From NCBI GenBank assembly GCA_964637575.1, contig CAZWVU010000003.1, positions 65,586 through 129,585 of the forward strand: a DNA stretch of 64,000 bases, given 5' to 3'. Of this stretch, positions 39,650 to 62,556 are shown piece by piece. The notes beneath the pieces are model-generated. The model had not been told where the DNA came from. It saw only the letters and a list, made by a program, of their open reading frames with translations, and searched no databases. This DNA is from an uncultured Candidatus Saccharibacteria bacterium. Its GTDB lineage: Bacteria; Patescibacteriota; Minisyncoccia; UBA6257; WO2-44-18. The position numbers and the translations under genes are program-made. Each line of letters opens with the position of its first letter. Position 1 is the stretch's first letter.

Positions 39650-39894
39650 ATTTTAAACAGCTCGGCTTCGCCTCGATCAAAAAACTGTCGAGGTGTCGGC
39701 CCTGGGCGCTTTTGCGCCCGCTTTCGTTTCGCTCAAGCCCACGAGAGCATACCATCAAGCCCGCTCGAGCGGGCTATCCAGAGGATATCCACAAGTCATT
39801 CACAAAATCGGGAAGCTCCTGAATGACCGGATGATACTATTATACGTAGCTCTTCGCAATAATTCGACAGGCTCATTACGAGAGGAGGAAGAAC

Positions 39895-40395
39895 GTGAAA
39901 TCGAATATTTCAGAAATAATCGAAGGCCAGCGGAGCCGGGAGACGCGACTGGCAGGTATAGTGTTCAAGTATTGCCCGGACCTGGTGCTTCATTCGCGGG
40001 TCGGGAGGGGACAGGCGCGAACCTTCGTGCCGCGGTTGAGATTCGATCGTTCGCGGCGGTTCGGCTGGTTTTTCCGGCTTTTCACCGGGCGCATCTCCAG
40101 TCCCGCCCTCGCGATTACGGGAAACATCCGTTCAGCGTTGGACATGAGCCGGGAATGGATTCCCATCGAAATTCACTGCTACGACATGGGATTTCTGAAT
40201 TCCGTGCTGTGCGTTGTGGTTGCCTATCGGAATGAAACCGGCTGTCCCGCGCGCGTAATCGAGGAACCGCTGGCGGATGATTCGCGCTGGAAGCCGGCGA
40301 TCCGCGTCCTGCTCGCCATCGCCGCGATGAGCGCGATCCTGATCGGCGTGAGACTCCTTTCCATGTCGTTCTTCAAAAATCTTTTCAGCTTCTGA
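39895..40395 (+). CDS. Hypothetical protein (166 aa), C-terminal TM helix
   Basis: GTG start with an AGGAGG Shine-Dalgarno 7 nt upstream. Followed by a terminator. Confidence 0.4.
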   Translation: MKSNISEIIEGQRSRETRLAGIVFKYCPDLVLHSRVGRGQARTFVPRLRFDRSRRFGWFFRLFTGRISSPALAITGNIRSALDMSREWIPIEIHCYDMGFLNSVLCVVVAYRNETGCPARVIEEPLADDSRWKPAIRVLLAIAAMSAILIGVRLLSMSFFKNLFSF

Positions 40396-40424
40396 TCCCG
40401 CTCCTTGACGAGCGGGATTTTTTG
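40395..40424 (+). terminator. Rho-independent terminator
   Basis: atcccgctc / gagcgggat stem followed by a T-run. Confidence 0.65.
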
Positions 40425-40468
40425 TGTTAATTTATTCACAGTTTTTTGAAGAGAAATGGAGGAGGCGA

Positions 40469-41467
40469 ATGAGAAGATTTGCGCGAAGAGCGTTGACCGG
40501 GTTCGCGCGGCTGTTGGCGGCAGGAGTGGTGTGCGGAGGAAGCAGTGCGCTCGTGTGGGCGACATGGCGCTGTTCCGGCATTCCCGGCCTGGCGGGTGCC
40601 GCGATTCTGATCGCGGTGCTTGTCCTGAAGCCGGCGTACCGGAATATTCCGACGCTGCAGATCGGCATGACGACGTTTCTCGGCATGAGGACCGGGCGCG
40701 TTCTGCCCGAAGGGCCGGCGCTGGTGATTCCCTGGCTTGAGAAAGTCTGGCTGTTTGATTACGAGGTGCACGTCGCGCGGGCGGAGGCGAAGGTCTACTG
40801 CAAAGACGGCATCGCGCTGGTCGCAGGCGGGCTTCTGAGCTGGCAGATCGATCCGGATCTGCTGTCCACGAGCTTCGTACTCAACAGGGAAAAAATCGAG
40901 AGCGAACTCGTGAACGCGGCGCGGAGCGAGCTCGGCATGATCGCCAGCGTGTACGGCGCCCTGGAACTGAAAGATTCCTGGGAGGCGGTGGCCAATCTCA
41001 TCAACTGTTCGTTGCGGATGGGAACGCCGCCGCACATCGCGGAGAGCATCCCGCCGGCGCGCCGGCTCGACTTCTACGGCAGCATTCCGTTCCGGAACCG
41101 GCTGGAGCGCGAGCCGCGGCTGGACGAGGAGCGGTCGGAAATCGAGAACCGTTGCGGCGTGCGCATCATCTGTTTCACGCCGGAGCCGCCGGAATTTACC
41201 GAGGGCACGGGCGAGGCGCTGGAGAGCGAGGGCCGGGCGATTCTCAAATCGAAAGCGGATCGCGTCGCGGCGGCGACCAAACTTGAGATCACCAGAAAGG
41301 CGAAGGAGGAAGGGTTGCCGCCGAAAGAGGCGAGCGTCTCCGCCGAGCTGACGATGGGCCAGCGGGTGGAGCGGAAGATCCATGACCTCGGCGGACTGGA
41401 GCGGCTGCGGCCGTTCCTGCCGCCGGAATCGCGTACCTATGGAGGAGCCATATGTCTAAGAAACTGA
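40469..41467 (+). CDS. SPFH/band-7 (stomatin/flotillin-like) domain membrane protein, paralogue 1
   Basis: N-terminal TM helix. SPFH-like core (RVLPEGPALVIPWLEKVWLFDYEVHV...KDGIALVAGGLLSWQIDP...). GGAGGAGG Shine-Dalgarno before the ATG at 40469. Confidence 0.6.
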   Translation: MRRFARRALTGFARLLAAGVVCGGSSALVWATWRCSGIPGLAGAAILIAVLVLKPAYRNIPTLQIGMTTFLGMRTGRVLPEGPALVIPWLEKVWLFDYEVHVARAEAKVYCKDGIALVAGGLLSWQIDPDLLSTSFVLNREKIESELVNAARSELGMIASVYGALELKDSWEAVANLINCSLRMGTPPHIAESIPPARRLDFYGSIPFRNRLEREPRLDEERSEIENRCGVRIICFTPEPPEFTEGTGEALESEGRAILKSKADRVAAATKLEITRKAKEEGLPPKEASVSAELTMGQRVERKIHDLGGLERLRPFLPPESRTYGGAICLRN

Positions 41468-41973
41468 CGGCGGTACTGATGATTGTCGCGTCACTTCTGA
41501 TCACCGGCGGATTTCTCTGGAAGTCCGGCACACTGCAGGCGACCGCGAAATCGATGGCCGAACGCCATCGGGAGGATCAGGCGCGTCAGCGAGCGGCGGC
41601 GGATGCCGAGTGTGCGCGCAAGAATCAGGCGGAAGCCTGGCAGAAGCGATGCGAACAGCTGCGGCATCTGCCGGTGGACGGCCGGGCCGCGATCTCGTTC
41701 CACGGTCTGCAGAAGACACTGGAGTGCGAGCTCCGGCCCGACCGGTGGTCGCGGGAGATCCGGCTTCCGGAGAAGTATGTCAGCTGGACGATCAACGTTT
41801 CTCCCGAAGACGGCCATCTGCTCTGGTTTGACGGCGAGGCCGAACCAGTGGAGCTGAACAAGGACGATCCACCGAGGAATCTCGGCCCGCGTCCCGGAAG
41901 CTTCCGGATTCTCGGAAAGACGGCCGGTCAGAAAGCCAAGATTACGTTTGAAGCGCAAAAGCCCCCTTTTTAG
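41452..41973 (+). CDS. Signal-anchored partner protein (novel family), paralogue 1
   Basis: Overlaps the SPFH gene by 16 nt. N-terminal TM helix. C-terminal domain ends in GSFRILGKTAGQKAKITF and is homologous to 43372-43914. Confidence 0.5.
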   Translation: MSKKLTAVLMIVASLLITGGFLWKSGTLQATAKSMAERHREDQARQRAAADAECARKNQAEAWQKRCEQLRHLPVDGRAAISFHGLQKTLECELRPDRWSREIRLPEKYVSWTINVSPEDGHLLWFDGEAEPVELNKDDPPRNLGPRPGSFRILGKTAGQKAKITFEAQKPPF

Positions 41974-41985
41974 GGGGCTTTTCTT
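41958..41985 (+). terminator. Rho-independent terminator
   Basis: gccccc / gggggc stem followed by ttttctt. Confidence 0.6.
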
Positions 41986-41999
41986 ATACACGGCCATAC

Positions 42000-42029
42000 T
42001 TGACAAAATGAGCTTATTTGTTCTATTAT
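42000..42029 (+). promoter_or_regulatory. Sigma70-like promoter (TTGACA-N18-TATTAT)
   Basis: Consensus -35 hexamer and a near-consensus -10 hexamer upstream of the second SPFH module. Confidence 0.35.
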
Positions 42030-42078
42030 ATTGGCAGTCGTTTGATAGTCTTTTTTAAAGAAAAAATAGGAGGAATGT

Positions 42079-43362
42079 GTGAGTCTGATGGCGATGATTG
42101 GCGCGGGCGCAGGAGTTCTGCTGCTCGCAGCGCTGTTGTTCCAGTTCCGGCGGAAGATTGTCCGGCTTTGGAAGCTGACGCTTTCGCTGGTGATGGTTCC
42201 CGTGGTGTTTACCGCGGTGGTGCTCATTGCGAAGTTCCGCGAACCGCTCAGCGCGTTCGCGGGCAGGGTGCTCGGCCGGATTGCCGGCGCCTGGTCCCTT
42301 TCGTGGGCGTTCGCGGCGGTTGTGCTCGCGCTTGCCTCGGTGGCGACGGCGGTGGCGATCTCGTCCAGTGACGAGAAGGAAGATATGCCGCCTCCAAAGT
42401 TTTCCCGGGTGCCGGCGCTTTGCTGGATCGGCGCGATTCTCTGCGCGATGGTGGCCTACCTGCCGAAGTTCGGCGAAGCGCCGTGGTTGATTTCCGCCAT
42501 GATGGCGCTCGCAGTGCTCTGGCTGATCGCCAGCTGTGTCATGATCGTTCCGCGGTATCACGCGGGCGTCGTGGCGATGGGCGACCGGCCGGTGCGGTCG
42601 GTCAGTTCCGGATGGACGCTGGTCTACCGTCCCCTCGGACTCACGGTCGAAGAGGTGGTCGAAGTGCACGAAGTGCGCACGACTTCCATCAACGACGTGA
42701 TAATCCAGGTGGAGGTGGGCGGTGTCGCGACGCCGGGAACCGAAAAAGAGCCCCTGAATCTCGAGATGACGCTGGAGTACAAGCCCAACGCGGTGAAGTA
42801 CATCCAGTTTCAGAGCGTGAAGCAGGAGAAGCTCGAGCAGATTCTCATCGATCACCTGGAAGGGTTCGCCACCGACGAGTTCAAAAGAGTGGTGAGCATC
42901 CAGGAGGCGTACGACAAGCTGGAAGAGATCGAGACCAAAATTCTTGATCTGTTCCACGGGATCCAGGATACCTACGGAGTGCTGGTGCGGAGCATCACGA
43001 TTGATGACGCGGCGCCGGATCCGAAGGTCATCCAGGCCAAGATCGAACGCCAGAAGAAGCTGAACGATGCGAAGCTGGATGTGGAAATCCAGGCCGAGAT
43101 CAACAAGAAGCGTCAGAAGGAGATGGCCAAGATCCATCAACTGGCGCTCAAGATGATCAAGGAGTGCGAAGCCGCCGGCCAGAAGCTTTCATATAAGGAA
43201 GCGGTGGCCCGCGTCCAGGTGCAGTTCGGGATCGTCAAAGAGTCCAAGAACACGATCGATTTCGGTCCCGGCATCCAGGGCGCCATCGGCGAAGTGATTC
43301 CGTTGTTCTCCCGTGATCGCGGTCCTGAAAAGGATCCGATGGGTTTCGGAAAGAAATCGTAA
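42079..43362 (+). CDS. SPFH/band-7-like domain membrane protein with a coiled-coil C-terminus, paralogue 2
   Basis: Several N-terminal TM helices. SPFH-like region (VVAMGDRPVRSVSSGWTLVYRPLGLTVEEV...). Lys/Glu-rich coiled coil. AGGAGG Shine-Dalgarno. Confidence 0.55.
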   Translation: MSLMAMIGAGAGVLLLAALLFQFRRKIVRLWKLTLSLVMVPVVFTAVVLIAKFREPLSAFAGRVLGRIAGAWSLSWAFAAVVLALASVATAVAISSSDEKEDMPPPKFSRVPALCWIGAILCAMVAYLPKFGEAPWLISAMMALAVLWLIASCVMIVPRYHAGVVAMGDRPVRSVSSGWTLVYRPLGLTVEEVVEVHEVRTTSINDVIIQVEVGGVATPGTEKEPLNLEMTLEYKPNAVKYIQFQSVKQEKLEQILIDHLEGFATDEFKRVVSIQEAYDKLEEIETKILDLFHGIQDTYGVLVRSITIDDAAPDPKVIQAKIERQKKLNDAKLDVEIQAEINKKRQKEMAKIHQLALKMIKECEAAGQKLSYKEAVARVQVQFGIVKESKNTIDFGPGIQGAIGEVIPLFSRDRGPEKDPMGFGKKS

Positions 43363-43371
43363 GGAGGAACT

Positions 43372-43914
43372 ATGGCAGATGCGAAAGGCGGAAAGGCCAC
43401 CGCCAAGAAGTTGGCCGGCAAGAACAAGTTCGTCACGTTCATCGCGCTCGCGTTCCTGCTGATCGGGGTCATGTACTTCAACTTCGGCAAGACTCCCGCC
43501 GATATTCTCGGCGGGAGTTCGAAGCCGGGTTCGGGAAGCTTCACGACGCCGAACAGCCGCTCGAGCCAGCAGGTGGGTGACCGCACGGATTTCGTGCGGT
43601 CCCTGCCCGACAGCGGCAAGCCCGTCGTTCGTTTCAGCGGCGAGAAGCAGGTGGTGGTGGATCTGAAGACCGATGAATGGTCGCAACAGGTCATCATCCC
43701 CGTTTCTCCAACAAAATACGTCGATTGTAGAATCGACGTAGATCCTCCGACTGGCTATTTCGTGAAGTTTCAGGATGGCCAAGTCGATCTGGTAACTGCA
43801 GACCAAAGAGAGTTCGTTGATCATGGAATGAAGAGGGGAATTTTCCGAATTCTCGGAACCTCTTCAGGACAAAAGGCAACGATCACTGTTTTTTTTCGAT
43901 CTGTGGCCAAGTAA
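43372..43914 (+). CDS. Signal-anchored partner protein (novel family), paralogue 2
   Basis: AAGGAGG Shine-Dalgarno. N-terminal TM helix. C-terminus ends in GIFRILGTSSGQKATITVF and aligns with paralogue 1 over about 90 aa. Confidence 0.5.
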   Translation: MADAKGGKATAKKLAGKNKFVTFIALAFLLIGVMYFNFGKTPADILGGSSKPGSGSFTTPNSRSSQQVGDRTDFVRSLPDSGKPVVRFSGEKQVVVDLKTDEWSQQVIIPVSPTKYVDCRIDVDPPTGYFVKFQDGQVDLVTADQREFVDHGMKRGIFRILGTSSGQKATITVFFRSVAK

Positions 43915-43916
43915 CC

Positions 43917-43958
43917 AAAACCCCCAGAAGCAATGCTTCTGGGGGTTTATTATTTTAC
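43917..43958. terminator. Bidirectional terminator
   Basis: 11-bp stem cccccagaagc / gcttctggggg, with an A-run before and a T-run after. Confidence 0.6.
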
Positions 43959-44020: not shown

Positions 44021-44365
44021 CTACCGTGCTCCGACAATCGCGCCGGCAACGGCCACGATCAACTGCGCGAGAAGCGCCACGCCTACGCCGATCACGGCAT
44101 AGATAATGGTATTTTTCGCGGTCTGGACTTTGTCTTCGTTGCCTGCCGCAGTCATATAGTTCCACCCGGCATAGATCACCATTACCGCGGCGATCACGAT
44201 GATCGCGGTCAGGAAGTAGTTGGCAATCGTCCGGATAATGCCGAACAGCTGGTCAATCGGGTTGCCACGCACCGCTACCGGGGCCGGGACTGTCTGGGCG
44301 CCCGCGAGGAGCGGCAGCAGCGCCACTGTCACTACTCCCGCGATTCCGAAAATCTTTTTTGTCAT
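44021..44365 (-). CDS. Secreted two-helix hairpin small protein, paralogue 1 (VirB2/TrbC-pilin-like architecture)
   Basis: Signal peptide ending LLAGA|QT. Two hydrophobic helices separated by AGNEDK. Start uncertain. Confidence 0.45.
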   Translation of the reverse strand: MTKKIFGIAGVVTVALLPLLAGAQTVPAPVAVRGNPIDQLFGIIRTIANYFLTAIIVIAAVMVIYAGWNYMTAAGNEDKVQTAKNTIIYAVIGVGVALLAQLIVAVAGAIVGAR

Positions 44366-44481
44366 ATTAGTAAAGCTGGTTTCATCTCGACCTTGAACAC
44401 TTTCCATTATAGCATCCCGCACATAAAAGCAACTCTTTCGCTTTTCCACACGGCTTTAACCAGGTATGTACGGGACAAGAA

Positions 44482-44838
44482 TTAAAGCTGGACTCCCACA
44501 ATTTGTCCCACAATCGCGATGATCACCTTGAAAAGAAGCATCACGCCGAGACCGATGACTACATAGAGGATGATCCGCTTGCCCTGCGAGACCTTATCCT
44601 CGCTTCCCGCGGAGGTAATGATGAGAAACGCCGCGTAGATAATCATCACCGTGCCGATGAGAATGGACGCCTCCAAGAGAAATCCCGCGATGGCGTTGAT
44701 AACCTGAATAAGCGTTTTATTGGTTTTGAGAGGATTAGGGAGAGTTGTATTTGGAGGTTGAGTAAAGCCACTGCTTTGAGCATGTGCCAAGAACGGCAGT
44801 AAAGTGGTTAAATAAATCGCTGAAATTATTTTTTTCAT
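44482..44838 (-). CDS. Secreted two-helix hairpin small protein, paralogue 2
   Basis: Signal peptide FLAHA|QS. Conserved IYAAFLIITSAGSEDK core. Confidence 0.5.
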   Translation of the reverse strand: MKKIISAIYLTTLLPFLAHAQSSGFTQPPNTTLPNPLKTNKTLIQVINAIAGFLLEASILIGTVMIIYAAFLIITSAGSEDKVSQGKRIILYVVIGLGVMLLFKVIIAIVGQIVGVQL

Positions 44839-44839
44839 A

Positions 44840-45235
44840 TTAGAAAATTGATCCTTTGGTGAAGAAGTTGAGGACGGTGTTGACGATCAGGTAGGAGCCG
44901 AAGGCGATGGCGACGCCGATGACGACGGCGGTGATGATCTGCTTGCCTTTCGCGAATTTATCTTCGTTTCCGGCTGCTGTCAGTATAACAAATCCGCCGT
45001 AGGCGATGAAAAGCGCCGCCAGCGGGACGACGATGTACACCATAAAGTTGATGATCTGCTTGATGAACTCCACGGCGGCGTTGAGATTGCACGATCCCGG
45101 CTGTCCCGGCGGCAGGGAGGGATTACATTTCGGGGCGAGATTCTGAGCCATGGCCGGAACGGCCAAACTAAAAAGTAAAAATGAAAAAGTAAAAACGATA
45201 GTTTCAATTTTTAAATTTAATTTATAATTTTTCAT
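44840..45235 (-). CDS. Secreted two-helix hairpin small protein, paralogue 3
   Basis: Signal peptide VPAMA|QN. Conserved IAYGGFVILTAAGNEDK core. Start abuts the stop of the solute-binding protein gene. Confidence 0.5.
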   Translation of the reverse strand: MKNYKLNLKIETIVFTFSFLLFSLAVPAMAQNLAPKCNPSLPPGQPGSCNLNAAVEFIKQIINFMVYIVVPLAALFIAYGGFVILTAAGNEDKFAKGKQIITAVVIGVAIAFGSYLIVNTVLNFFTKGSIF

Positions 45236-46522
45236 TTAACGGCTTCGCCGCTGCATCAGGTCGGTGACCTTGCTGGCGGCTTCGGAGAGCGCGCGGTCAA
45301 TCTGCAGGCGGCCGCCGTTCACATCGGCGATCATCTGGGAGAAGATGCTGTCCACCGCGGCGTTATCAATTTCCGGCCAGGAGCGGGCGGTGAGCGCCTG
45401 TTTGGCGAAGATGCCGAGATCCGGCTGGGTGGAAATATATTCATCAATCAGCGCGCGGAGCGCCGGCGGGCGGCCGGAAAGCTGAAGATATTTACGCGAA
45501 GCGTCCGGGTTGGCGCCGAGGAACGTCACGAAATCCTGGGCGAGCGGCTGATTCTGGGTCTTATTGGAGACGGCGATACCCCAGTAGTTGGCGAAATTCA
45601 CCGGCGAGGTCGCCTCTACCGGCTGGAGCATCGGCGCCACGCGGAATTTCAGGAACGGGCTCTTGTCTTTCAGGAACTGGATCTTGTCCGAATAGTTGAA
45701 CATGATCGCGTCCTGGCCGGCGGCGAAATCATCCAGCGAGAAGGGAAGCGAGTCGTTCCAGGTATACGAAGAGTCGCGGCCGGAGGCGAACTTCGTGTAG
45801 TAGGCGAGCGCCTGCTGGCCTTCCGCCGAGGCGAAGGTGGCGTTTTTGAAATCACTGTCGGTCATCTGCGTGCCGGCCTGCAGCATCACCAGACTCAAAA
45901 GATCGGTCGCGTGATCAATGCTCTTGTCGGAGCCGCCGACCGCCGCCGCGGCCTTGGTGATCCGCCCAGCTTTGTCAATTTCGCGGATGCGGGGGATGAT
46001 CTTTTCCAGATCGGCCCAGGTTTTTGGCGGCAGGGAGATGCCTTTCGCGTCAAAGATATCCTGGTTGTAGTACAACGCGAGCGTATCAAGATAGAGCGGA
46101 TAGGTCCAGACGGCGTTGTCCGGCGCGAAATCCTGCTGGACGATGGTGGGGAAGAGCGACTTGAAATTGGCGAGTGCCGAGGCGTCGGTGCCGAGCGGCA
46201 GGATCTTATTGGAGTGCTTCGGCAGCCAGGTGTTGTGGAACATCAGCACGTCCGGGCCGGTATTGCCGGCAAGCGCGTCCACCAGCTGCTGTTCGTACGT
46301 ACCCGGGTCCATCTGGACGTAGGAGATATCAATTTTGGACTTCGGATACTGCGCTTTGTACATATCTATGAGCGGCTGGATGACGGCGCTGTCGTCCACG
46401 CCCCAGAACTTGATCTCGCCCGACACCTGCGTGGATGACTTCTGCGTGCCAAACAAAAATACGGCGATAATTCCGCCGATGACGAGCAGTGCGAGGATGA
46501 TGATAACAACCCGGGGTTTCAT
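45236..46522 (-). CDS. Extracellular solute-binding protein (ABC-type, family 1, sugar-like), membrane-anchored
   Basis: N-terminal anchor. Size and sequence resemble MalE-like substrate-binding proteins. No permease or ATPase genes nearby. Confidence 0.65.
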   Translation of the reverse strand: MKPRVVIIILALLVIGGIIAVFLFGTQKSSTQVSGEIKFWGVDDSAVIQPLIDMYKAQYPKSKIDISYVQMDPGTYEQQLVDALAGNTGPDVLMFHNTWLPKHSNKILPLGTDASALANFKSLFPTIVQQDFAPDNAVWTYPLYLDTLALYYNQDIFDAKGISLPPKTWADLEKIIPRIREIDKAGRITKAAAAVGGSDKSIDHATDLLSLVMLQAGTQMTDSDFKNATFASAEGQQALAYYTKFASGRDSSYTWNDSLPFSLDDFAAGQDAIMFNYSDKIQFLKDKSPFLKFRVAPMLQPVEATSPVNFANYWGIAVSNKTQNQPLAQDFVTFLGANPDASRKYLQLSGRPPALRALIDEYISTQPDLGIFAKQALTARSWPEIDNAAVDSIFSQMIADVNGGRLQIDRALSEAASKVTDLMQRRSR

Positions 46523-46581
46523 TACTAATTATTTTAGCATATCGGTATTTGTGATCGTTGATCTGGTATACTTTATCCAAG

Positions 46582-47100
46582 ATGTCAAAATCACACTCCT
46601 TCAAAGTAATTCTGGGCGGGGCGGTCGTGGTGCTGCTGGCCGGGTATCTCCTATTTTCCGGCAAGGAGGTCAGCGGCGCCGCTACCTATACGAATCTGGA
46701 ACAGAGATACGCCATACAGTATCCGAAGTCCTGGTCCGTGGACGCGTCCAAAAATCTGGAATCGCCGAGCCAGGTCTACTTCATTTCTCCCGAGAAAAAG
46801 TCCGCGCTGAACAGCAACCTCGCGGGCGACCTATTTCCCTACGATGTCGCGGTGATCGCCTGGAGCACTAAGCAATCGCTTCAGGAGTTTCTCAAGCCTC
46901 AAACGGAGAGTCCTGACGCGGCGGATGTGCGCACAATTTCCATCAACGGCCTGGACGGCTACGAAAGCACGAGCGGCGCCAATCACGCTTTTTATTTCAA
47001 GCGCGGCAATATGATCTTCCAGATTGATATGGCCTCTGACAATTTTACCTTCCCCGAGCAGCGTCTTCAGATCGCCCAGAGTTTCACGTTTACAAAGTAA
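46582..47100 (+). CDS. Membrane-anchored hypothetical protein
   Basis: N-terminal TM helix followed by a beta-rich extracellular domain. Start uncertain (TTG at 46558 or ATG at 46582). Confidence 0.4.
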
Positions 47101-49938: not shown

Positions 49939-50193
49939 TTACCCCGTTAGATAGTTTTTTAACCGATTCTTTATATATCGTTTACCCCAAGCAGTTTTCA
50001 GATATTTTTCGCGATGGGTAGCGTCCTGCTGATGGCCAGACGCTTCATAATATACCAGTTTGACGGGTAAACGATCTTTCGTTGAAGCGACCTTACCTTC
50101 GTTATGAAGTTTTAATCTGTTGTTAAGGTCGCTGGTATAACCAGTGTAGAATTGACCATCTTTCTTACTTTGCAAGATATACGTGTAATACAT
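49939..50193 (-). CDS. GIY-YIG nuclease-superfamily small protein (UPF0213/YhbQ-like)
   Basis: N-terminal YYTYILQS...GQFYTGYTSDLNNRLKLHN is the GIY-YIG motif. AT-rich (about 38% GC) compared with its neighbours. Confidence 0.7.
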   Translation of the reverse strand: MYYTYILQSKKDGQFYTGYTSDLNNRLKLHNEGKVASTKDRLPVKLVYYEASGHQQDATHREKYLKTAWGKRYIKNRLKNYLTG

Positions 50194-50212
50194 TGTATCT
50201 AACGGGGTGAAC

Positions 50213-50758
50213 TTATGCTTTTAATACCACCACTTTCATTCCCGGTGTAATATCTTTTTTCTTGATGACCAGTTTTTCCTCCGGTTCGGCTTTCTTCTCT
50301 ACTTCCTTCAAAAACGCCGCCACCTCCGCCGGCTTTATATATGAAGGGATGACGATCTTGGGCTGGATCTGCTTGATCACTTTGGCGCTGATGCCCGCCG
50401 GCGCGAAGAGAATGTCCACTTCGCCGAGCTTGTCCAAAAGCCCCGGCTCCATCTCCTGCATCGCCTCGCCCATAAACACCAGCCGCATCTCCTCGGTTTT
50501 TACCAAGTAAGTTGTGGCCAGCCCGCCTGAGGCGGGAAATCCCCCCATTTCCACTTCGGAAATTTCATATTCGCCCGGTCCGTAAATATGCCCCGCTTCC
50601 GGCGGCCACGTCTTTAGTACGGAGTTCTTAGTTCCAAGTTCTAAGTTCTGCGTATGCAGGGTTATGTCGCCTTTGAAACGCGGCAGGGGATCAGTGATGA
50701 TACTCACTTTTCCTGATTGGATCTTAAAGCACCGCTCTCCTGCGTAGGTGATTACCAT
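50213..50758 (-). CDS. Metallo-beta-lactamase-fold hydrolase-like protein (tentative)
   Basis: Size and sequence pattern resemble short MBL-fold proteins. No clear HxHxDH motif, so confidence is low. Confidence 0.4.
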   Translation of the reverse strand: MVITYAGERCFKIQSGKVSIITDPLPRFKGDITLHTQNLELGTKNSVLKTWPPEAGHIYGPGEYEISEVEMGGFPASGGLATTYLVKTEEMRLVFMGEAMQEMEPGLLDKLGEVDILFAPAGISAKVIKQIQPKIVIPSYIKPAEVAAFLKEVEKKAEPEEKLVIKKKDITPGMKVVVLKA

Positions 50759-50840
50759 AAGAATACTTTCTATTTTACACTACTTTCTGACCAAAACAAA
50801 GTATTTATGCTACTTGAAAAACATCTGCTTAAGAGTGATA

Positions 50841-51551
50841 ATGAGCGAGAAATCAATGAATTTTACTTGCCCGTACTGTAATAGGCCAACGACAATAACC
50901 GGCCCCAATTCTTTTTCTGATTGGCGACATATCGTTATAGCAAAATCAACGCTTGGGAATGCCGGGTTATTTTCTCGAGCTATTACTTGCCCCAATAAAG
51001 AATGTAATAAGCTTTGGCTTCATATTGGGCTTTATGAGGCAGATTATGCAGGACGCCGAGTTGAATATAACCGCCTGAATCAGTGGCAGCTTTTGCCAGA
51101 ATCGGAAGCGAGGGTTTTACCAGAGTATATACCCGCACCAATACAGGAGGACTATTATGAAGCATGCAGAATCCGTGATTTAAGCCCGAAGGCATCCGCC
51201 ACACTCGCGAGACGTTGCCTACAGGGCATGATCCGTGATTTTTGGAAGATTAAAAAGGCGCGACTTAAGGAAGAAGTTGATGCGCTGGAAGAAAAAGTGG
51301 ATGCGGATACTTGGTCGAGTATAGATGCAGTCAGAAGTGTCGGTAACATTGGCGCGCACATGGAAAGAGACATTGATGTCATCGTTGCGGTTGAGCCACA
51401 AGAGGCGCAGCTACTAATTGGTCTTATCGAGCAATTGATTGACGATTGGTATGTCGCCCGAGATTCTAGGCACAAGCGCACAGAAGAATTAAAAAAGTTG
51501 GCAATGGATAAGCAAGAACAAAGAAGTGGAGCTGAAAAAAAGGAAGAATAA
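50841..51551 (+). CDS. Zinc-ribbon + DUF4145-like helical domain protein
   Basis: N-terminal CPYCN...CPNKEC zinc ribbon. C-terminal segment (ACRIRDLSPKASATLARRCLQGMIRDF...RSVGNIGAHMERD) resembles DUF4145. TATAAT overlaps the start codon, so the mRNA is probably leaderless. Confidence 0.5.
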   Translation: MSEKSMNFTCPYCNRPTTITGPNSFSDWRHIVIAKSTLGNAGLFSRAITCPNKECNKLWLHIGLYEADYAGRRVEYNRLNQWQLLPESEARVLPEYIPAPIQEDYYEACRIRDLSPKASATLARRCLQGMIRDFWKIKKARLKEEVDALEEKVDADTWSSIDAVRSVGNIGAHMERDIDVIVAVEPQEAQLLIGLIEQLIDDWYVARDSRHKRTEELKKLAMDKQEQRSGAEKKEE

Positions 51552-51555
51552 AATT

Positions 51556-51822
51556 ATGCGCACAAGTACAAAAATATTAATCGGAGTAGTTGCTTTTCTT
51601 GCAGTATTATTTGTATTTACCCGGTATGCCCCTAACTCTCCAAAAACTGATCCAGAAGCAATAAAGAAAACGCTCCAAATATTAATCAACGGCAACGACG
51701 CCAAAATACAAGAACTCCAGGATGAGATCAAGAAAACCAGAGCTTCAAGTGACTGCCTGAAGTCAGCGATTGTGTCATATAAGGACCAAGGCTTTCAGGA
51801 AATTTTAAGCAGTTGCCAATAA
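51556..51822 (+). CDS. Small signal-anchored protein (88 aa)
   Basis: AAGGAAG Shine-Dalgarno. One TM helix followed by a coiled-coil-like tail. Confidence 0.4.
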   Translation: MRTSTKILIGVVAFLAVLFVFTRYAPNSPKTDPEAIKKTLQILINGNDAKIQELQDEIKKTRASSDCLKSAIVSYKDQGFQEILSSCQ

Positions 51823-51915
51823 CTTACTCAAAGAATAAGGCATTGCACTGGTTTGGCATTAATTAAATAAAAAATCCCCCTTGCGGGTATTTTTATTTTC
51901 GGCGAAGATGGCTGG

Positions 51916-53070
51916 ATGGCCGATGAATTACCAGAGGGGCTGAAGGGAATGAAAAAAGTTAAATCATCTGACGGTGATTTTGTCGCCAAGAAAAAGCCCG
52001 GAAAAATATATGTTTCTGACTTCTCTGCAAAAGAGGGGAAGTATTTTAGCGTGATTGCGGATGAAGGAGGTGGCAAGGTTCTGCATGATAGCGCCCGACT
52101 TCAGATCCGAGCTTGTTTTATCACGAAGCTCGGACAGGTGAACGAATTGAAGATTCAACGATTTGAAAAAAAGAAAGGAGAAGTCGTTCCGGGCAGTGTA
52201 GTCGAAATACGTATTGACACCGCTAATTTAGCCGTGCTCCGCGAGTTTGTCGACTTTATCCAGCGAGCCGACCTAGCATCGGTTGCTGCCGGGCGGCTTA
52301 GTTTTGACGCCGACCTGAAGCTAGAAAAAGGATTACAGGCCAAGCTGGTGGCTCTTGCGCAGGACGAGGGCGGGAGGGCAATGCTCCTTAAACTTTTCGA
52401 AGATGGATATCTCACATCTGGCCTCGATGTTTCCGATCTTATCAAAAAAGGATTATCGCATGAGAAGCTTGAGCAAAAATTTGCCATCCTTACAAAATTT
52501 GAAAAACTAATTAAAACCCCCGATATCAGCGAGTTAAAGATTCAGGAATTTCTCACTTCGGCGCCATGGATTTTTGGTCCTGAATATACTGCTGTTGATA
52601 TTCGCGATGCCGGTTCATCCGGAGTACCGGATCGGCGCTTGAAAAGAATCGACGGGCTGAGCGATATCTTAGAGTTCAAGCTTCCGTCCGCTGAAGTTCT
52701 GAGAGCTGATAAAATGGGCAGGCAATACATTGCGCCCGCGGCGGCTGAGGCGCTCGGTCAATTAATGGCCTATCTTGAATACTATACGAGCGAATACCAG
52801 GAGCTAAAAAAAGACGTGGATGGGAAGGAGGTGCTAGAAGAGTTTCGTGGTCGTTACTACAAGCCAAAGGGAATCCTTTTAATTGGTCGGAGAAGCGCCG
52901 CTTCAGGAGTTGATGGCGTGAAGGCGACGACCGACGTTCAACCGAAGCACCTGCGGCGCATGATGTCATTCTTTCACGGCATCGAGGTTCTCACATATGA
53001 CGATTTAATTGAGCGCGCTCGGAATGGATTGGTTGCAATATCGGGCGATGGCGCATCTACGTGGGTGTAG
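51916..53070 (+). CDS. Predicted PD-(D/E)xK-superfamily nuclease; Shedu/DUF4263-like, tentative
   Basis: C-terminal region ...FGPEYTAVDIRD...RIDGLSDILEFKLP fits a D...(hydrophobic)3-E-x-K restriction-endonuclease-fold motif. N-terminal region is not assignable. Confidence 0.45.
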   Translation: MADELPEGLKGMKKVKSSDGDFVAKKKPGKIYVSDFSAKEGKYFSVIADEGGGKVLHDSARLQIRACFITKLGQVNELKIQRFEKKKGEVVPGSVVEIRIDTANLAVLREFVDFIQRADLASVAAGRLSFDADLKLEKGLQAKLVALAQDEGGRAMLLKLFEDGYLTSGLDVSDLIKKGLSHEKLEQKFAILTKFEKLIKTPDISELKIQEFLTSAPWIFGPEYTAVDIRDAGSSGVPDRRLKRIDGLSDILEFKLPSAEVLRADKMGRQYIAPAAAEALGQLMAYLEYYTSEYQELKKDVDGKEVLEEFRGRYYKPKGILLIGRRSAASGVDGVKATTDVQPKHLRRMMSFFHGIEVLTYDDLIERARNGLVAISGDGASTWV

Positions 53071-57549: not shown

Positions 57550-60500
57550 ATGTTTAAGCCAAAGAGAATACTCTTTTTGGTGCTTATTGGACTGGCACTG
57601 TCAGGCTTTCTTTTTGCATGTGAAAGGACGGCCAATGCGGAACTCACCGTCGTTGCCGGGCCGTACACGAATGCCGCGTTGCAGCAGGTGTCTGACAGCC
57701 CCGTCCAAACACTGGAAGGTTGGTTCCGCAATCTTGGCAGTTTAATTATCAGCAACGTGCGCCATACCGCGGTGAGCGTGGCGGATATATTCCGGCCCGG
57801 CGCCGCCCAGCCGCTGGCCCAGCTTCTTCCGCAGAACCAGCTTGCGCAAACAGTAGAAGTGACTCCGTTGCCCGGCACGGAAACGGTCAACAAGACCACC
57901 TCCACGTCCGGCTCGGTCACCACTCAGGTCATCGAACGTCAGATCACCCCGATCCAGATCAGTGTCAGCGTGAGCCAGAACGCTTCCAATAGTAATCTCC
58001 AGACGGAGATCAACGCGCTCCAGTCCCAATTCACCGCCTTCCAGCAATCCCAATCCCAGGTCACCCAATCTATTTTCCAGGTGGTCGGGCAAAGCAGTAT
58101 CTCCAGCAAATTTGTCACTGATCTTCTCACTGATGCCAACATTCCCAACAACATCACCGTTTCCGGATATCTTCCGGTGGCCGGAGGCAGCTTGAGCGGC
58201 GATTTGGGTGTGGGTGGCGTATTGAGCGTCACCGGCACTGCTACTTCTTCGGTAAGCGGTCCGCTCACTATCACCACGACGACCGCGACCTCTTCCTTCA
58301 GCGGGGGATTGACGGTGGCGGCGACGAGCGGCGTCTTCGGCATCGGCACGACTACTCCAGGCGCTGCGCTCGCCGTTGCGGGCAACGCGGTAGTCGGCGG
58401 GAACACGACCATCGTCGGCAATCTGGACATTCAGGGTTCCTGCACCGGCTGCGGCGGTTCTTCGATCGTGAATCTTAGCGAAGCCGGATCGCTCGATGGC
58501 TTTGCCTCCACTGCTCCCTGGGGCGTCTTATCGGTTGAGCAGATATCTTCCAACAATACCAACCTTCCCGCCTTTATCGTTTCCGATCAGGGCACCTCGA
58601 CCGCCTCACTCATCGTGATGAACAACAACGGGTATGTCGGCATCGGCACCAACACTCCTTCGGAGCGGTTTACCGTGGGAAAAGGGAATTTCCTGAATCC
58701 GATCGCGAGCACGACGCCGCTTGCCGGTGTGGATTTCGGCAGCGATGCCGTTGAGGGCATGGCCATTGTCGGCCGCTACGCGTATGTAGTAACGACCGGC
58801 GATACGGGAACCTGCACGACCTCAACGTTTACCGGCTGCGAATTCAAGATTATCGATCTCCACAATATCAAAAAACCGGCTATCGTCGGCGGGTACGATC
58901 TGGAATCCACCAGTTCCTTTACCGATGGTGGCGAGTCCATCGCGGTTTACGGCCGCTACGCGTATGTCGGGAAGTACCAGAGTGCGAAAACCTGCAGCCA
59001 GCCGAACAATGTCAAAGGCTGCGAGCTGGTGATCTTTGATATTTCCAATCCGGCTTCCACGACGGTGGTGAGCGGCACCAATTTTGACACTGTGGGCATC
59101 CGGGCGATTCAGACGAACGGCCGCTATGCATATATCGGGACCAGCCGGGACAGCGTGACGTGCTCCGTTCCGGGCGAGCCGGAAGGTTGCGATTTTCAGG
59201 TGTACGACGTATCCAACGTTGCCTCCACCACCTTTATCGGCGGCACAGATCTTAAAGACGGAGTCAGCAACATCGGAGTTACCATCAACGGGGTCCAGAT
59301 CCGCGGTAAATATGCCTATGTCGCCAAGTCGGAATCGGGCGGCGAAACGTGCGACACTACATATGTTACCTGCGAATTTGTGATCTATGATATTTCCGAT
59401 CCGACCAACCCGACGGCGATCGGCGGCGCCGATCTTGGTCCGGCCGCCAACAGCCAGGTGGCGTATGGACTCGCCATCCAGGGACGGTACGCTTACATTA
59501 CTACTGACGACCAGGCTGCCGCGTGCACCCCGTCTACCGGCAATGGCTGCGGACTGCTCGTGTTTGATATATCCAATCCCGCCTCTCCCTCGCTGGTAAA
59601 CGGTTTTGATATCGCCAACAACAGCGGCTCCGGCGTCATCGCCTTCGGACATTATCTGGTAGTGACCAACTCCGTTAATTCCGGGAATTGCACCGGCCAA
59701 AGCGATTGCACCACGAGTATATTCGATATCAGCAACCCGAACTCTCCTTCGTTTCTTGCCGGCGTTGATACCGGCGAGAAGGGCGTCGTGAGCGATGGTT
59801 TTCTCAACGCGGACGGCCGTTATCTGTTCATGTATGGCGGCGAAAACAGCACTGTCTGCAGTGGCACGGATGTGAGCGGCTGCGAACTTCGCGTCTACGA
59901 CCTCGGCGGCTCCGAGATCGGTTCCGCCAACATCGGATCCCTGGAAGCGGGCATTGTTTCCACGCAAGGCGATCTGACCGTCGGCGGCAATGCCAGGATC
60001 GCCTCCGGCCTCAACGTCGGCTTCGCCGGCATTGGCACTGAAGGCACCCTGATGGTAGCTTCCTCATCTTCATTCTTCGGACCGATCGGCGTCGGCACCA
60101 CTTCACCGCAAGGCATGGTGGCTATCGATAACTCCGTCGCCGGCACCAAAATGCCCGCACTTCTCATCAAAGCCGGCGGCACGGGCAACGGCAATATCGC
60201 CATCGCGGTTAGTTCAACCGAAGTTTGCAAAGATACCGTGAACGTCGCCACCTGCGTGCTCAACGACCTTGCGGAGCTTTACCCTGCTTCCGGTCAGCTG
60301 GAAGGCGGGGACATCGTTGCCTTTGATTCTGGCGCGCCGATTAATGTGAAAAAAGCCGGCTATGACAATCGTGAACAGCTGGCGGGTGTTCTCTCTACAA
60401 ACCCGGCGATCGTTTTTGAAGGTTCCAAGATCAAGATTATGGGCGGCTCTTATCAGTGGGAAGGCAGCAGCGTACCGGTAGCGCTCTCCGGAAGAATTCC

Positions 60501-61053
60501 GGTCAAGGTCTCTCTGGACAACGGTCCGATTCATATCGGTGATCCGATCACGATCTCTACTTCCACGCCCGGCGTCGGCGTGAAGGCCACCGAATCCGGC
60601 AAGATCATCGGCTACGCGCTGGAAAATCTCGATACGGCAACGACCGCCCCGGGAGTATTTGAAAAAGTAATGATCTTCGCCAACCTGACTTACTGGCAGA
60701 ATCCGAAACAGGACAGCCAGAGTTGGCTCGCCGCCGTCGCTGACTGGCTGAAGGGAGCGGTAGTAACAATACAGGAATTATTCGTCGGGAAACTTACGGT
60801 GGGAACGCCGGATCAGCCGGCGGGAATTACCATGTATGACCAGGCGACCGGACAGCCGTACTGCTTCGGTCTCCGGAATGGCGCCGCGGAATATGTGCCG
60901 GGGGCGTGCGGATCCGCCGCGTCTGTTACCACGCCTTCTTCACCGTCCGATCCTTCGCCATCTTCTTCCGATTCTGCAACTTCAACGACCACTCCGGATA
61001 CTGCTACTCCCGATACCGTGGTTCCTGATGCCTCTGGCACGCCGTCGCAGTAG
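57550..61053 (+). CDS. Giant cell-surface protein with seven LVIVD-type beta-propeller repeats and a Ser/Thr/Pro-rich tail
   Basis: N-terminal signal/anchor. Seven repeats of G(R/K)YAY(V/I)...C....C(E/D)(F/L).(I/V)(F/Y)D(I/V)SNP..P...G. C-terminus is PSSPSDPSPSSSDSATSTTTP. Confidence 0.6.
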   Translation: MFKPKRILFLVLIGLALSGFLFACERTANAELTVVAGPYTNAALQQVSDSPVQTLEGWFRNLGSLIISNVRHTAVSVADIFRPGAAQPLAQLLPQNQLAQTVEVTPLPGTETVNKTTSTSGSVTTQVIERQITPIQISVSVSQNASNSNLQTEINALQSQFTAFQQSQSQVTQSIFQVVGQSSISSKFVTDLLTDANIPNNITVSGYLPVAGGSLSGDLGVGGVLSVTGTATSSVSGPLTITTTTATSSFSGGLTVAATSGVFGIGTTTPGAALAVAGNAVVGGNTTIVGNLDIQGSCTGCGGSSIVNLSEAGSLDGFASTAPWGVLSVEQISSNNTNLPAFIVSDQGTSTASLIVMNNNGYVGIGTNTPSERFTVGKGNFLNPIASTTPLAGVDFGSDAVEGMAIVGRYAYVVTTGDTGTCTTSTFTGCEFKIIDLHNIKKPAIVGGYDLESTSSFTDGGESIAVYGRYAYVGKYQSAKTCSQPNNVKGCELVIFDISNPASTTVVSGTNFDTVGIRAIQTNGRYAYIGTSRDSVTCSVPGEPEGCDFQVYDVSNVASTTFIGGTDLKDGVSNIGVTINGVQIRGKYAYVAKSESGGETCDTTYVTCEFVIYDISDPTNPTAIGGADLGPAANSQVAYGLAIQGRYAYITTDDQAAACTPSTGNGCGLLVFDISNPASPSLVNGFDIANNSGSGVIAFGHYLVVTNSVNSGNCTGQSDCTTSIFDISNPNSPSFLAGVDTGEKGVVSDGFLNADGRYLFMYGGENSTVCSGTDVSGCELRVYDLGGSEIGSANIGSLEAGIVSTQGDLTVGGNARIASGLNVGFAGIGTEGTLMVASSSSFFGPIGVGTTSPQGMVAIDNSVAGTKMPALLIKAGGTGNGNIAIAVSSTEVCKDTVNVATCVLNDLAELYPASGQLEGGDIVAFDSGAPINVKKAGYDNREQLAGVLSTNPAIVFEGSKIKIMGGSYQWEGSSVPVALSGRIPVKVSLDNGPIHIGDPITISTSTPGVGVKATESGKIIGYALENLDTATTAPGVFEKVMIFANLTYWQNPKQDSQSWLAAVADWLKGAVVTIQELFVGKLTVGTPDQPAGITMYDQATGQPYCFGLRNGAAEYVPGACGSAASVTTPSSPSDPSPSSSDSATSTTTPDTATPDTVVPDASGTPSQ

Positions 61054-61062
61054 TAGAATGTC

Positions 61063-62547
61063 ATGTCCAAGAAAATCTTTTTCGTCATTGGAGCAGGGTT
61101 AGCACTGCTGGCCGCGACCGCGTTCGCGCAGACGACTTTCACGCTCACGCTCCATCTTACCAATCCCGGACCGGATGCGGTGAATGTTGTCGGCAAATTC
61201 ACCCTGCCCGATTGCCTTATCCCGCAGAATTTGCCGGCGGGCCAGTCTTGGGATCCCATCTCGCGCGTACTCCGGGCGCCGCTTGGCCCGCTCGCGAGCG
61301 GAGAGACTGCGTCAATTCCGATTGAAGTGGAAGTGACAACTCCGCAGTGCTCCGGCAACGCCACGGTGGAAGGGGAATACACCTACAGCTATGTTACTTC
61401 CGGCGCGGGCGGCGGCAGCCAGCCGGCGCAACATGTTCCTCCCACGCCCGAAACCATTACTCCCGCTCCCGCCGAGCAGTCGGCCGCGCCCGGCGGCGCC
61501 AGCGCCGGCGGACCGCTCCAGACTTTGAATTTCCTGCCTTCGCCGGTCGCGAACGCGGTGCGGTCGCTGCGGGAAAATCCCCAGGCGGTGGCGATCGTGA
61601 ACCAGGCGGTGGCGCCGGCGGCGCTGCTCGCAAGCGCCCTTTCCACCATCGTCGTTACCGGCAACGCCGTAGCCGCCGGGTCGCATATCGTCCTCGGCTG
61701 GTGGCAGACGCTCCGGTTTATTTTTCTTGGATTTTTAAAACGGAAGCCGAGATATCCCTGGGGGCGTGTGATCAACCAGTGGACGCAACAGCCGATTGCC
61801 GGCGCCCGGGTAAACGTGGTGGAGCCGGTGTTCAAGCGGGTAAAAGAAACGCAGCTTACCGACCGCGAGGGACGTTTCGGATTTCTGGTAACGCCCGGCG
61901 CCTATTACCTGACGGTGTCCCGGGCGGGGTTTGCGCCGGCGCACACCGAGGAGTTTTCCGTGGGGGAGAACGTGGCGGCGCTGAATCTGACGGTGGAAAT
62001 GGTGGAAACGCGGAGAATTCTTTCCGACGTGCGGACCTGGTGGGTGAAATTCATCCATGCCGTCAACGACTTTTTGTACCAGATCAATCCGCTGGTGCTG
62101 GTGGTGGGCACGGGAATCAGCGCGTTTGCACTTCTCGTGGTGCCCAGTACGCTGAATGTGATCGTGCTGATTTCCTACGCCGTAATTGACGCCGCCAAAG
62201 CCTGGCTTTCACTCTATTCCGCGAAGTCCTATGGCCTGGTTATCGATCAACAGACCCGTCTGCCGCTCGCGTTGAGTGTCATCAGAATTTTTAACGTCGA
62301 CAACAACTGGCTGATCGGCACGCGCGTCGCCGATGACCGCGGCCGCTTCACTTTCCTTACGCTCCCGGGGCGCTACTATCTAAGCTGCGACAAAGCCGGT
62401 TATCAGGAGTTGAAAACCGCCCCGATCGCGATCAGCCACGCCAATATTTTCAGGCAGACGCTGGCGCTTGCGCCGGCTTCGCAGGATATTCCGCCCAGTT
62501 ATCCACAAAGTCTTCCGCCCGATGAAAGTCGTGGTATTATGAAATAG
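61063..62547 (+). CDS. Secreted/membrane protein with two carboxypeptidase-regulatory-like beta-sandwich domains
   Basis: Signal peptide. Ala/Pro-rich linker. Two repeats (GARVNVVE...DREGRFGFLVTPGAYYLTV and TRVADDRGRFTFLTLPGRYYLSC) flank two TM helices. Confidence 0.45.
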   Translation: MSKKIFFVIGAGLALLAATAFAQTTFTLTLHLTNPGPDAVNVVGKFTLPDCLIPQNLPAGQSWDPISRVLRAPLGPLASGETASIPIEVEVTTPQCSGNATVEGEYTYSYVTSGAGGGSQPAQHVPPTPETITPAPAEQSAAPGGASAGGPLQTLNFLPSPVANAVRSLRENPQAVAIVNQAVAPAALLASALSTIVVTGNAVAAGSHIVLGWWQTLRFIFLGFLKRKPRYPWGRVINQWTQQPIAGARVNVVEPVFKRVKETQLTDREGRFGFLVTPGAYYLTVSRAGFAPAHTEEFSVGENVAALNLTVEMVETRRILSDVRTWWVKFIHAVNDFLYQINPLVLVVGTGISAFALLVVPSTLNVIVLISYAVIDAAKAWLSLYSAKSYGLVIDQQTRLPLALSVIRIFNVDNNWLIGTRVADDRGRFTFLTLPGRYYLSCDKAGYQELKTAPIAISHANIFRQTLALAPASQDIPPSYPQSLPPDESRGIMK

Positions 62548-62556
62548 TAAAAAACT

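Follow-up and report, generated by a model that had tools for sequence, protein, structure and literature searches.

Why should three small, apparently secreted proteins be encoded directly behind a solute-binding protein (SBP) that has no transporter beside it? The question is posed by four open reading frames (ORFs) that follow one another on the minus strand, from 46522 down to 44021, of a 64-kb stretch of a Patescibacteria contig (CAZWVU010000003.1), referred to here as the window. An earlier note on this DNA, made from the letters alone, had described a membrane-anchored SBP directly followed by three paralogous small proteins. We recovered the four ORFs where it had placed them, and the three small proteins, which we call pilA, pilB and pilC, are 32–48% identical to one another.

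45236–46522, minus strand: SBP gene, 428 amino acids (aa), first gene of the operon
44840–45235, minus strand: pilA, 131 aa, T4SS_pilin family
44482–44838, minus strand: pilB, 118 aa, T4SS_pilin family
44021–44365, minus strand: pilC, 114 aa, T4SS_pilin family, last gene of the array

With moderate confidence, we read the three proteins as pilins of the type IV secretion system (T4SS) apparatus of Patescibacteria, co-expressed with an oligosaccharide-binding accessory protein. This reading is the best supported because of the family to which the proteins are assigned, the published genetics of Saccharibacteria, and the fusion of the first pilin to an SLT lytic transglycosylase domain in related genomes.

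The pilin-family proteins

All three proteins exceed the gathering threshold (26.6 bits) of the Pfam family PF18895, T4SS_pilin, with scores of 38.8 bits for pilC, 33.8 for pilA and 27.9 for pilB, and the precomputed Pfam labels on the public proteins P0121 and P0288 and on their homologues agree with this assignment. By these profile scores, the membership of pilA, pilB and pilC in the VirB2-like pilin family of Patescibacteria can be considered established. The family is large (92,790 cluster representatives at E ≤ 0.001) and characterized by tandem arrays, a trait shared by the three genes here and by the related loci, which hold one to eight. Global identity amounts to 32% between pilA and pilB, 32% between pilA and pilC and 48% between pilB and pilC, and against a family hidden Markov model (HMM) made from the three proteins and their relatives they reach E = 7e-32, 3e-28 and 2e-25, indicating by sequence that they are true paralogues.

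The architecture proposed in the earlier note, a signal peptide followed by two helices around an AG(N/S)EDK turn, is borne out by hydropathy, by the cleavage motifs and by a structural model. Each protein has a predicted signal peptide with a basic N-terminus and a hydrophobic core (Kyte–Doolittle 11-residue maxima of 2.1–2.65) that ends in an Ala-x-Ala/Gln cleavage site following the −3/−1 rule: AMA/QN in pilA, AHA/QS in pilB and AGA/QT in pilC. Hydropathy gives two hydrophobic helices in each, joined by the loops TAAGNEDK (pilA), TSAGSEDK (pilB) and TAAGNEDK (pilC). In the AlphaFold2 model of pilC (pLDDT 78) the signal-peptide helix spans residues 3–24 and the hairpin helices residues 36–71 and 77–113, and the same signal-peptide and two-helix plan runs through an alignment of 48 pilin sequences.

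For pilA, a predicted signal peptide (residues 1–30) is followed by an exposed segment with Cys37 and Cys49, helix 1, the loop and helix 2. The first 86 nt of the gene have a GC content of 23%, compared to 54% for the window, and code for a signal peptide rich in Lys, Phe and Leu. An AT-rich 5' end had previously been attributed to the third paralogue and likened to intergenic repeats; the stretch belongs to pilA, and no second copy of it was found within the 64-kb window. The public gene call for pilA, P0288 (103 aa), begins at Met29 and so lacks the signal peptide. The orthologues support the 131-aa form over P0288; the exact 131-aa sequence is missing from the protein collection.

The solute-binding protein

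The protein encoded by the first gene matches the Pfam families SBP_bac_8 (E = 1.7e-25, 90.8 bits) and SBP_bac_1 (E = 6.4e-24, 85.9 bits), and we assign it, from its sequence, to the membrane-anchored CUT1-type (MalE-like) binding proteins. It has a single N-terminal transmembrane helix and no lipobox Cys. Its AlphaFold2 model (pLDDT 90.6) places this helix at residues 2–25, followed by a disordered tether (24–30) and a two-lobe fold, which Foldseek aligns with oligosaccharide-binding proteins at TM-scores of 0.70–0.76, 16–21% identity and E-values down to 8e-25. Homologues number 628, and those named among the best 120 are Patescibacteria or Parcubacteria-group members (Harrison- and Liptonbacteria) or unclassified 'bacterium' metagenome-assembled genomes (MAGs), which places the source organism in the class Paceibacteria. 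In an alignment of 25 homologues the mean column identity is 59% within the class and many aromatic residues are invariant; the invariant Trp, Tyr and Phe would be compatible with a sugar cleft. The only over-long homologue, P0101 (532 aa), considered as a possible SBP-pilin fusion, proved to carry a mis-called N-terminal extension.

The protein thus shares its Pfam families and its two-lobe fold with CUT1 binding proteins such as MalE, GacH, CbpB, the beta-glycoside-binding protein and Lmo0181. Those proteins are lipid-anchored or free in the periplasm, whereas the present one is held by an uncleaved transmembrane helix, and in place of a permease or ATPase gene it has pilin genes next to it. 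No sugar permease or ATP-binding cassette (ABC) ATPase was found among the ORFs of the window, of which some 33 out of about 60 were scanned against Pfam; the others, judged visually from their N-terminal sequences or from cluster membership, look like housekeeping genes. Nor was a CUT1 permease found within 10 kb of the SBP in about 80 related loci, or any conserved polytopic neighbour of permease type. The ABC parts that do occur near related SBPs are an ABC-2 exporter, FtsEX and, beside the outlying locus L084, one gene for an ATPase with tandem ATP-binding domains. A neighbour with six transmembrane segments in three loci, examined as a sugar permease, proved to be the ABC-2 exporter.

Linkage in related genomes

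We surveyed one genome per species with the SBP alignment and obtained 80 loci, numbered here with the prefix L. Their titles are mostly those of Patescibacteria, Paceibacteria or Parcubacteria-group MAGs, some being a generic 'bacterium', and a few were automatically labelled Saccharibacteria or Gammaproteobacteria, apparently in error. Linkage was counted in the 67 loci with at least 500 bp of sequence beyond the SBP gene, where pilins were recognised with an HMM built up in iterations from pilA, pilB and pilC.

A pilin gene starts within 300 bp past the SBP gene in 65 of these 67 loci, and in 66 when L039 is counted, where an apparent exception arises from an A-type pilin broken by masked bases. 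The sole real exception is L084, whose SBP is the most distant (28% identity). All 282 pilin ORFs in the surveyed loci lie downstream of the SBP gene and on the same strand; none lies upstream or on the opposite strand. The median gap from the SBP gene to the first pilin gene is 11 nt, the first being of the pilA type and followed by zero to seven further pilins, and independent metagenome contigs present the same arrangement.

The pairing persists while its surroundings change. The upstream neighbour of the SBP gene is most often gyrA (30 loci) or a small methyltransferase (27); a ComM-like ATPase takes its place in 5 loci and an NTP-transferase in 3. In Falkowbacteria-type loci the array itself is split: one pilin gene adjoins the SBP gene and the other three to seven lie 1.4–8 kb away behind unrelated genes. 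The pilin retained beside the SBP is of the pilA type (60–68 bits, compared to about 42 for pilB and pilC). That the SBP-pilA pair survives several such rearrangements suggests selection for co-production. The genes in the gaps of the split arrays (L073–L079) were considered as possible T4SS machinery and turned out to encode a P-type ATPase, SMC, ComM-like and RodZ-like proteins, a methyltransferase, YraN and glycosyltransferases.

The order of the pilins is also conserved. In 63 of 70 arrays the pilin in first position matches pilA best; in 54 of 63 the one in last position is closest to pilC, and 42 pilins from middle positions have pilB as their best match. These fixed positions indicate that the paralogues are old and not recent copies. 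A-type pilins usually have two to four conserved cysteines (GLVPCG...C..C towards the N-terminus and W..I.C towards the C-terminus) and C-type pilins have none. Cysteines at both ends were seen in the A-type pilins of L007, L012, L018, L020, L022, L072 and others; the clade of the window has only the N-terminal pair. We may speculate from these sequences that disulfides tie the exposed ends of A-type pilins together, an arrangement that would resemble the head-to-tail cyclisation undergone by the T-pilin and by RP4 TrbC.

In Yanofskybacteria-type genomes, the first-position protein combines the pilin domain with He_PIG/fn3 domains and an SLT lytic transglycosylase. These fusions are 500–1200 aa long, some with a purple-acid-phosphatase-N domain:

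L041, 11209–14223: pilin-SLT fusion
L042, 9223–12831: pilin-SLT fusion
L028, 10135–11721: pilin-SLT fusion

In them the pilin hairpin serves to anchor a wall-cutting enzyme resembling VirB1; in the classical T4SS it is VirB1 that supplies the lytic transglycosylase activity. Three further observations concern related arrays. A conserved protein of about 227 aa without a family match comes after the first-position gene in some ten loci. L085 contains an array of nine PF18895 genes without any SBP. The database proteins P0138–P0162 hold 4–17 consecutive T4SS_pilin domains per polypeptide, with 17 matched stretches in the 1775 aa of P0147; they are either genuine poly-pilin precursors or gene calls fused across tandem arrays.

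Comparison with known systems

PF18895 pilins and their tandem arrays in Patescibacteria are already published (2023, 2025), and so the array itself, which the earlier note had raised as a possible novelty, is not new (PMC10633639; PMC12102498). According to Wang et al. (2023, PMC10633639), the pilins of Southlakia epibionticum are encoded within an essential T4SS cluster. Quinonero-Coronel et al. (2025, PMC12102498) identified VirB2-like pilins with the PF18895 and PF04956 profiles in 1,948 assemblies of Patescibacteria and reported 441 tandem arrays of 2–11 highly divergent genes, the paralogues having a mean identity of 25% and a maximum of 54%; the role they suggested for the arrays is variation for host evasion or for adaptation to different hosts or host strains. 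In that study a pilin was near virB4 in only 1135 of the 1948 assemblies, indicating that nearness to virB4 is not strictly defining for PF18895. A 2025 review describes the Patescibacteria systems as unique among monoderms for their potential to form conjugative-type pili (PMC12857230), and a 2024 perspective describes the role of the Patescibacteria T4SS as completely unknown and considers that it might serve uptake (PMC11665869).

The window array shares with the published ones the Pfam family, the signal peptide and hairpin build, the divergent tandem paralogues and the phylum. It differs in that it is neither in nor beside a virB4 cluster, in the SBP gene at its head, and in the A-first, C-last order kept across the class. 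This conserved order argues for fixed, distinct roles of the subunits and against arrays that exist mainly for variation. Our full-text literature search found no mention of an SBP partner of Patescibacteria pilin arrays; the class-wide operon of SBP and A-type pilin and the fixed A-to-C order appear to be undescribed.

Two other families are comparable. The window proteins resemble VirB2/TrbC (the Agrobacterium T-pilin and RP4 TrbC) in their long signal peptide, in the pair of hydrophobic helices with a short loop, polar or basic, and in measuring about 70–90 residues after processing. Real virB2 genes are flanked by virB1 and virB3, whereas the pilin genes of the window are not. The best NCBIfam match for all three is NF045849, the Mbov_0395 family of integrative and conjugative elements (ICEs) in Mycoplasma, at 37.3, 20.7 and 17.6 bits, below the cutoff of 40. 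It likewise has two helices and belongs to a monoderm conjugation system; the window pilins have no ICE context. As for the SBP, proteins with a solute-binding fold are tied to T4SSs elsewhere, namely PrgZ/TraC of enterococcal plasmids and ChvE-VirA of Agrobacterium, which sense small molecules of the partner or host. PrgZ/TraC, which bind pheromones, are of the peptide-binding SBP_bac_5 and ChvE of the monosaccharide-binding Peripla_BP family, and the permease or sensor kinase through which they act is known; here no partner of this kind was seen.

Organization of the operon

The reading of the DNA corrects the earlier note in two details. The first junction, described there as overlapping, has a zero gap: the TAA stop of the SBP gene directly abuts the ATG start of pilA. 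The gap from pilA to pilB is 1 nt. The size range of 118–142 aa becomes 114–131 aa once the start of pilC is set at 44365, as the 142-aa ORF with a GTG start (44021–44449) over-extends pilC into the spacer ahead of it. The ATG at 44365 (MTKKIFG...) is the most likely start because the public gene call P0121 has 114 aa and the orthologues 115–120 aa. Three candidate regulatory features accompany the genes:

44366–44481, minus strand: spacer ahead of pilC, 116 nt, GC 42%
46528–46555, minus strand: weak sigma-70-like promoter candidate, ATCACA-16-AATAAT, upstream of the SBP gene
43918–43948, both strands: predicted hairpin terminator, 14-bp stem with 8 G-C pairs, T-runs on either strand

The spacer contains a promoter-like element made of TTGCTT (44432–44427), a 15-nt gap and an extended −10 motif, TGcTATAAT (44414–44406), from which we infer that pilC may have its own promoter. 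In related arrays the median gap ahead of the last pilin is 70 nt, compared to 11 nt between the SBP gene and the first pilin, and this longer gap fits a separate promoter-like element before pilC. The candidate upstream of the SBP gene agrees with 9 of 12 consensus positions. It is only a suggestion, since matches of this quality were found 4 times compared to 2.3 expected from shuffled sequences, a count that barely exceeds expectation. The hairpin lies between pilC and the convergent gene at 43372–43914 and is predicted to terminate transcription of both.

A model and its alternatives

In the model that we favour, the locus would be a chromosomal operon of the class Paceibacteria (Parcubacteria) in which three non-redundant VirB2-like pilins are encoded behind a membrane-tethered SBP. 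The SBP, pilA and pilB would be produced from one transcript with tightly coupled translation, as their gaps of 0 and 1 nt suggest, and pilC would be boosted by its own promoter. The pilins would be exported by the Sec pathway and, judging by their cleavage motifs, cut by signal peptidase I after A-x-A, leaving a hairpin of two helices in the membrane, its N- and C-termini outside the cell and its AG(N/S)EDK loop facing inwards. A VirB4/VirB6-type machine encoded elsewhere, to which family membership and the Saccharibacteria data point, would then extract the pilins into a short pilus or conduit. In this structure pilA would be a specialised minor subunit, given its place next to the SBP gene, its cysteines and its SLT/Ig-domain fusions in sister lineages, and pilC the likely major subunit. 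At the base of the apparatus the SBP would bind an oligosaccharide derived from a host or from the wall, which would serve as a cue of host contact or be captured as incoming sugar.

Several observations weigh against this model. The first group concerns the machine. VirB4, VirB6, VirB3, VirB8, VirD4 and relaxase were not found among the ORFs of the 64-kb window, and the first five did not turn up among the conserved or large neighbours scanned within 10 kb of the SBP in the related loci. The earlier note had remarked that VirB4, VirD4, relaxase and a permease or ATPase for the SBP are lacking here, and this holds for the window; its description of the SBP as an orphan holds for the related loci examined as well. 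Since none of these VirB or VirD4 genes was seen in the window or in the scanned neighbours, the assembly machine is assumed, not seen.

The second group concerns the distance from pilins proven by experiment. The TrbC/VirB2 family PF04956 scores 25.5 bits for pilA and 21.3 for pilC, under its threshold of 27.9, and the Pfam scan gave no match for pilB. Alignment with hhalign to genuine VirB2/TrbC proteins of Ti-type plasmids yields a probability of 6.7%, with helix 1 aligned in register. Neither the search of the PDB sequences with the 48-sequence pilin profile nor the Foldseek search of the PDB with the hairpin matched any pilin; the closest compact analogues in the latter are ATP-synthase c subunits (TM-score 0.72–0.73, not significant). 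We know of no pilus of this type imaged in Paceibacteria. Finally, the tether leaves the SBP some ten residues from its own membrane, which does not allow a position at the tip of a fibre, hence its placement at the base; and gyrA and an MBL-fold gene are conserved neighbours across the class as well, so that, with gene order generally conserved in small genomes, adjacency alone proves no functional link.

The earlier suggestion of VirB2/TrbC-like pilins therefore stands as far as PF18895 is concerned, with all three proteins above threshold, and falls short for VirB2 proper, where the PF04956 score, the hhalign probability and the Foldseek search gave no match of that strength. Among the close orthologues, some are labelled PF04956. 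On these sequence comparisons, homology of the three proteins to VirB2 proper is plausible but unproven. In the literature on Patescibacteria T4SSs we found no report of pilus polymerisation for any PF18895 member.

The chief rival to the pilin model accepts the genes and denies the partnership: the SBP would be an ordinary CUT1 receptor whose permease and ATPase are encoded elsewhere, and it would merely share a highly expressed envelope operon with pilins that it does not contact. Its canonical MalE-like fold and family motifs agree with this, and functionally unrelated genes do keep their order here, as seen in the MBL-fold gene, gyrA and the methyltransferase. Scattered ABC components are, moreover, common in reduced genomes. 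On the other hand, the adjacency outlasts at least four upstream contexts and the break-up of the array in Falkowbacteria-type genomes, the gaps of 0–11 nt suggest translational coupling, and a CUT1 permease is missing within 10 kb of the SBP in about 80 loci. We consider this explanation possible but rather unlikely.

A more ambitious proposal is that the SBP and the A-type pilin form an unrecognised working unit, in which the SBP docks on pilins at the base of a host-directed tube and recognises or imports oligosaccharides without a classical ABC permease. These oligosaccharides could be the products of the lytic transglycosylase that is fused to pilA in sister lineages. We hold this to be improbable. 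More improbable in our judgement is that the hairpins are not subunits of a fibre and oligomerise as a membrane channel or short tube that takes sugar from the SBP without an ABC permease, along the lines of the unusual uptake apparatus mentioned in the earlier note. The lack of a permease partner near the SBP is in line with such a conduit, two-helix hairpins can form rings, as in the ATP-synthase c analogues noted above, and an uptake role for the essential Patescibacteria T4SS is openly speculated (PMC11665869). No energy-coupling component is present, however, and PF18895 pilins also occur in the array of L085, which has no SBP, and in bona fide T4SS clusters (PMC10633639). Identity with the small subunits of TRAP/TTT transporters was examined and rejected: the matches to DctQ (18.2 bits, threshold 28.3, E = 0.0025) and TctB (11.1 bits, threshold 29.1, E = 0.45) lie far below threshold and represent hydrophobic noise.

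The remaining alternative, holin- or bacteriocin-like secreted peptides with the SBP as immunity or sensing protein, had been entertained in the earlier note on account of the small size and the two hydrophobic helices, and could also appeal to the muramidase-type (SLT) domain fused to the first protein in some relatives, but it is barely credible given that no such family was matched in Pfam or NCBIfam, that the signal peptides are classical Sec peptides and not double-glycine leaders, and that the housekeeping region is conserved in 66 species, with no phage genes, lysis cassette or adjacent peptide-export ABC transporter.

Neighbouring features

The window as a whole is a housekeeping chromosomal stretch, with aminoacyl-tRNA synthetases, gyrA, topA, dprA, IF-2, PNPase and seven tRNAs. 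Other large neighbours in the related loci are FtsH, VanW, TsaD and ArgRS, and one locus has a type IV pilus (PilB-type) ATPase.

Two tandem pairs of genes on the plus strand, at 40424–43914, are convergent with the pilin operon. Each consists of a gene for an SPFH/Band-7 membrane protein (347 aa in one pair, 427 aa in the other) and, behind it, one for a signal-anchored protein of some 175 aa without a family match; their GC content is unusually high (0.59–0.63). One or both pairs are found downstream of the pilin array only in close relatives, in about six loci each (L001, L003–L005, L010, L019 and L091), and for this reason we do not count them in the system. The 775 bp or so between tRNA-Leu and the first SPFH gene (39650–40423) contain no convincing ORF, only frames of low GC3, and gave no Rfam match at the gathering threshold.

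Between gyrA and the SBP gene, a 180-aa membrane-anchored ORF (46558–47100, plus strand) overlaps the 3' end of gyrA by 11 nt and weakly resembles PsbP_2 at E = 0.04. Only about 30 nt separate gyrA from the SBP gene in L005, the closest relative, and in 27 other loci the small methyltransferase fills this slot. The ORF has the appearance of a spurious frame or of an insertion specific to the lineage.

Also beside gyrA, at 49939–53070, is an island of low GC content (0.43–0.48, compared to 0.54 for the window) that is probably a small anti-phage defence island:

49939–50193: GIY-YIG-nuclease-looking ORF
50748–51551: DUF4145 gene
51916–53070: Shedu gene (SduA_C)

Towards the end of the window, on the plus strand at 57550–63432, three secreted or surface proteins of 1167 aa (LVIVD repeats), 494 aa (CarboxypepD_reg and DUF11) and 291 aa (no family) may form a surface-adhesin cluster. 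A further DUF11 protein is encoded at 5592–7316.

Significance

How ultra-small, biosynthetically poor Patescibacteria draw on their hosts is an open question, and the T4SS is essential in the one species tested. Should the link described here reflect no more than synteny, the locus would simply add another copy to the known pilin arrays. Otherwise, the SBP-pilin operon offers a testable handle on the T4SS of these bacteria, reduced to one ligand and one protein pair, and the conserved A-to-C order points to a fibre of fixed make-up, built of several subunits among which there are minor and major pilins. As clues to what the Patescibacteria T4SS does, the class-wide operon of SBP and A-type pilin and the fixed order of the pilins are modest but real, and the pairing may bear on how these bacteria sense their hosts or feed on them.

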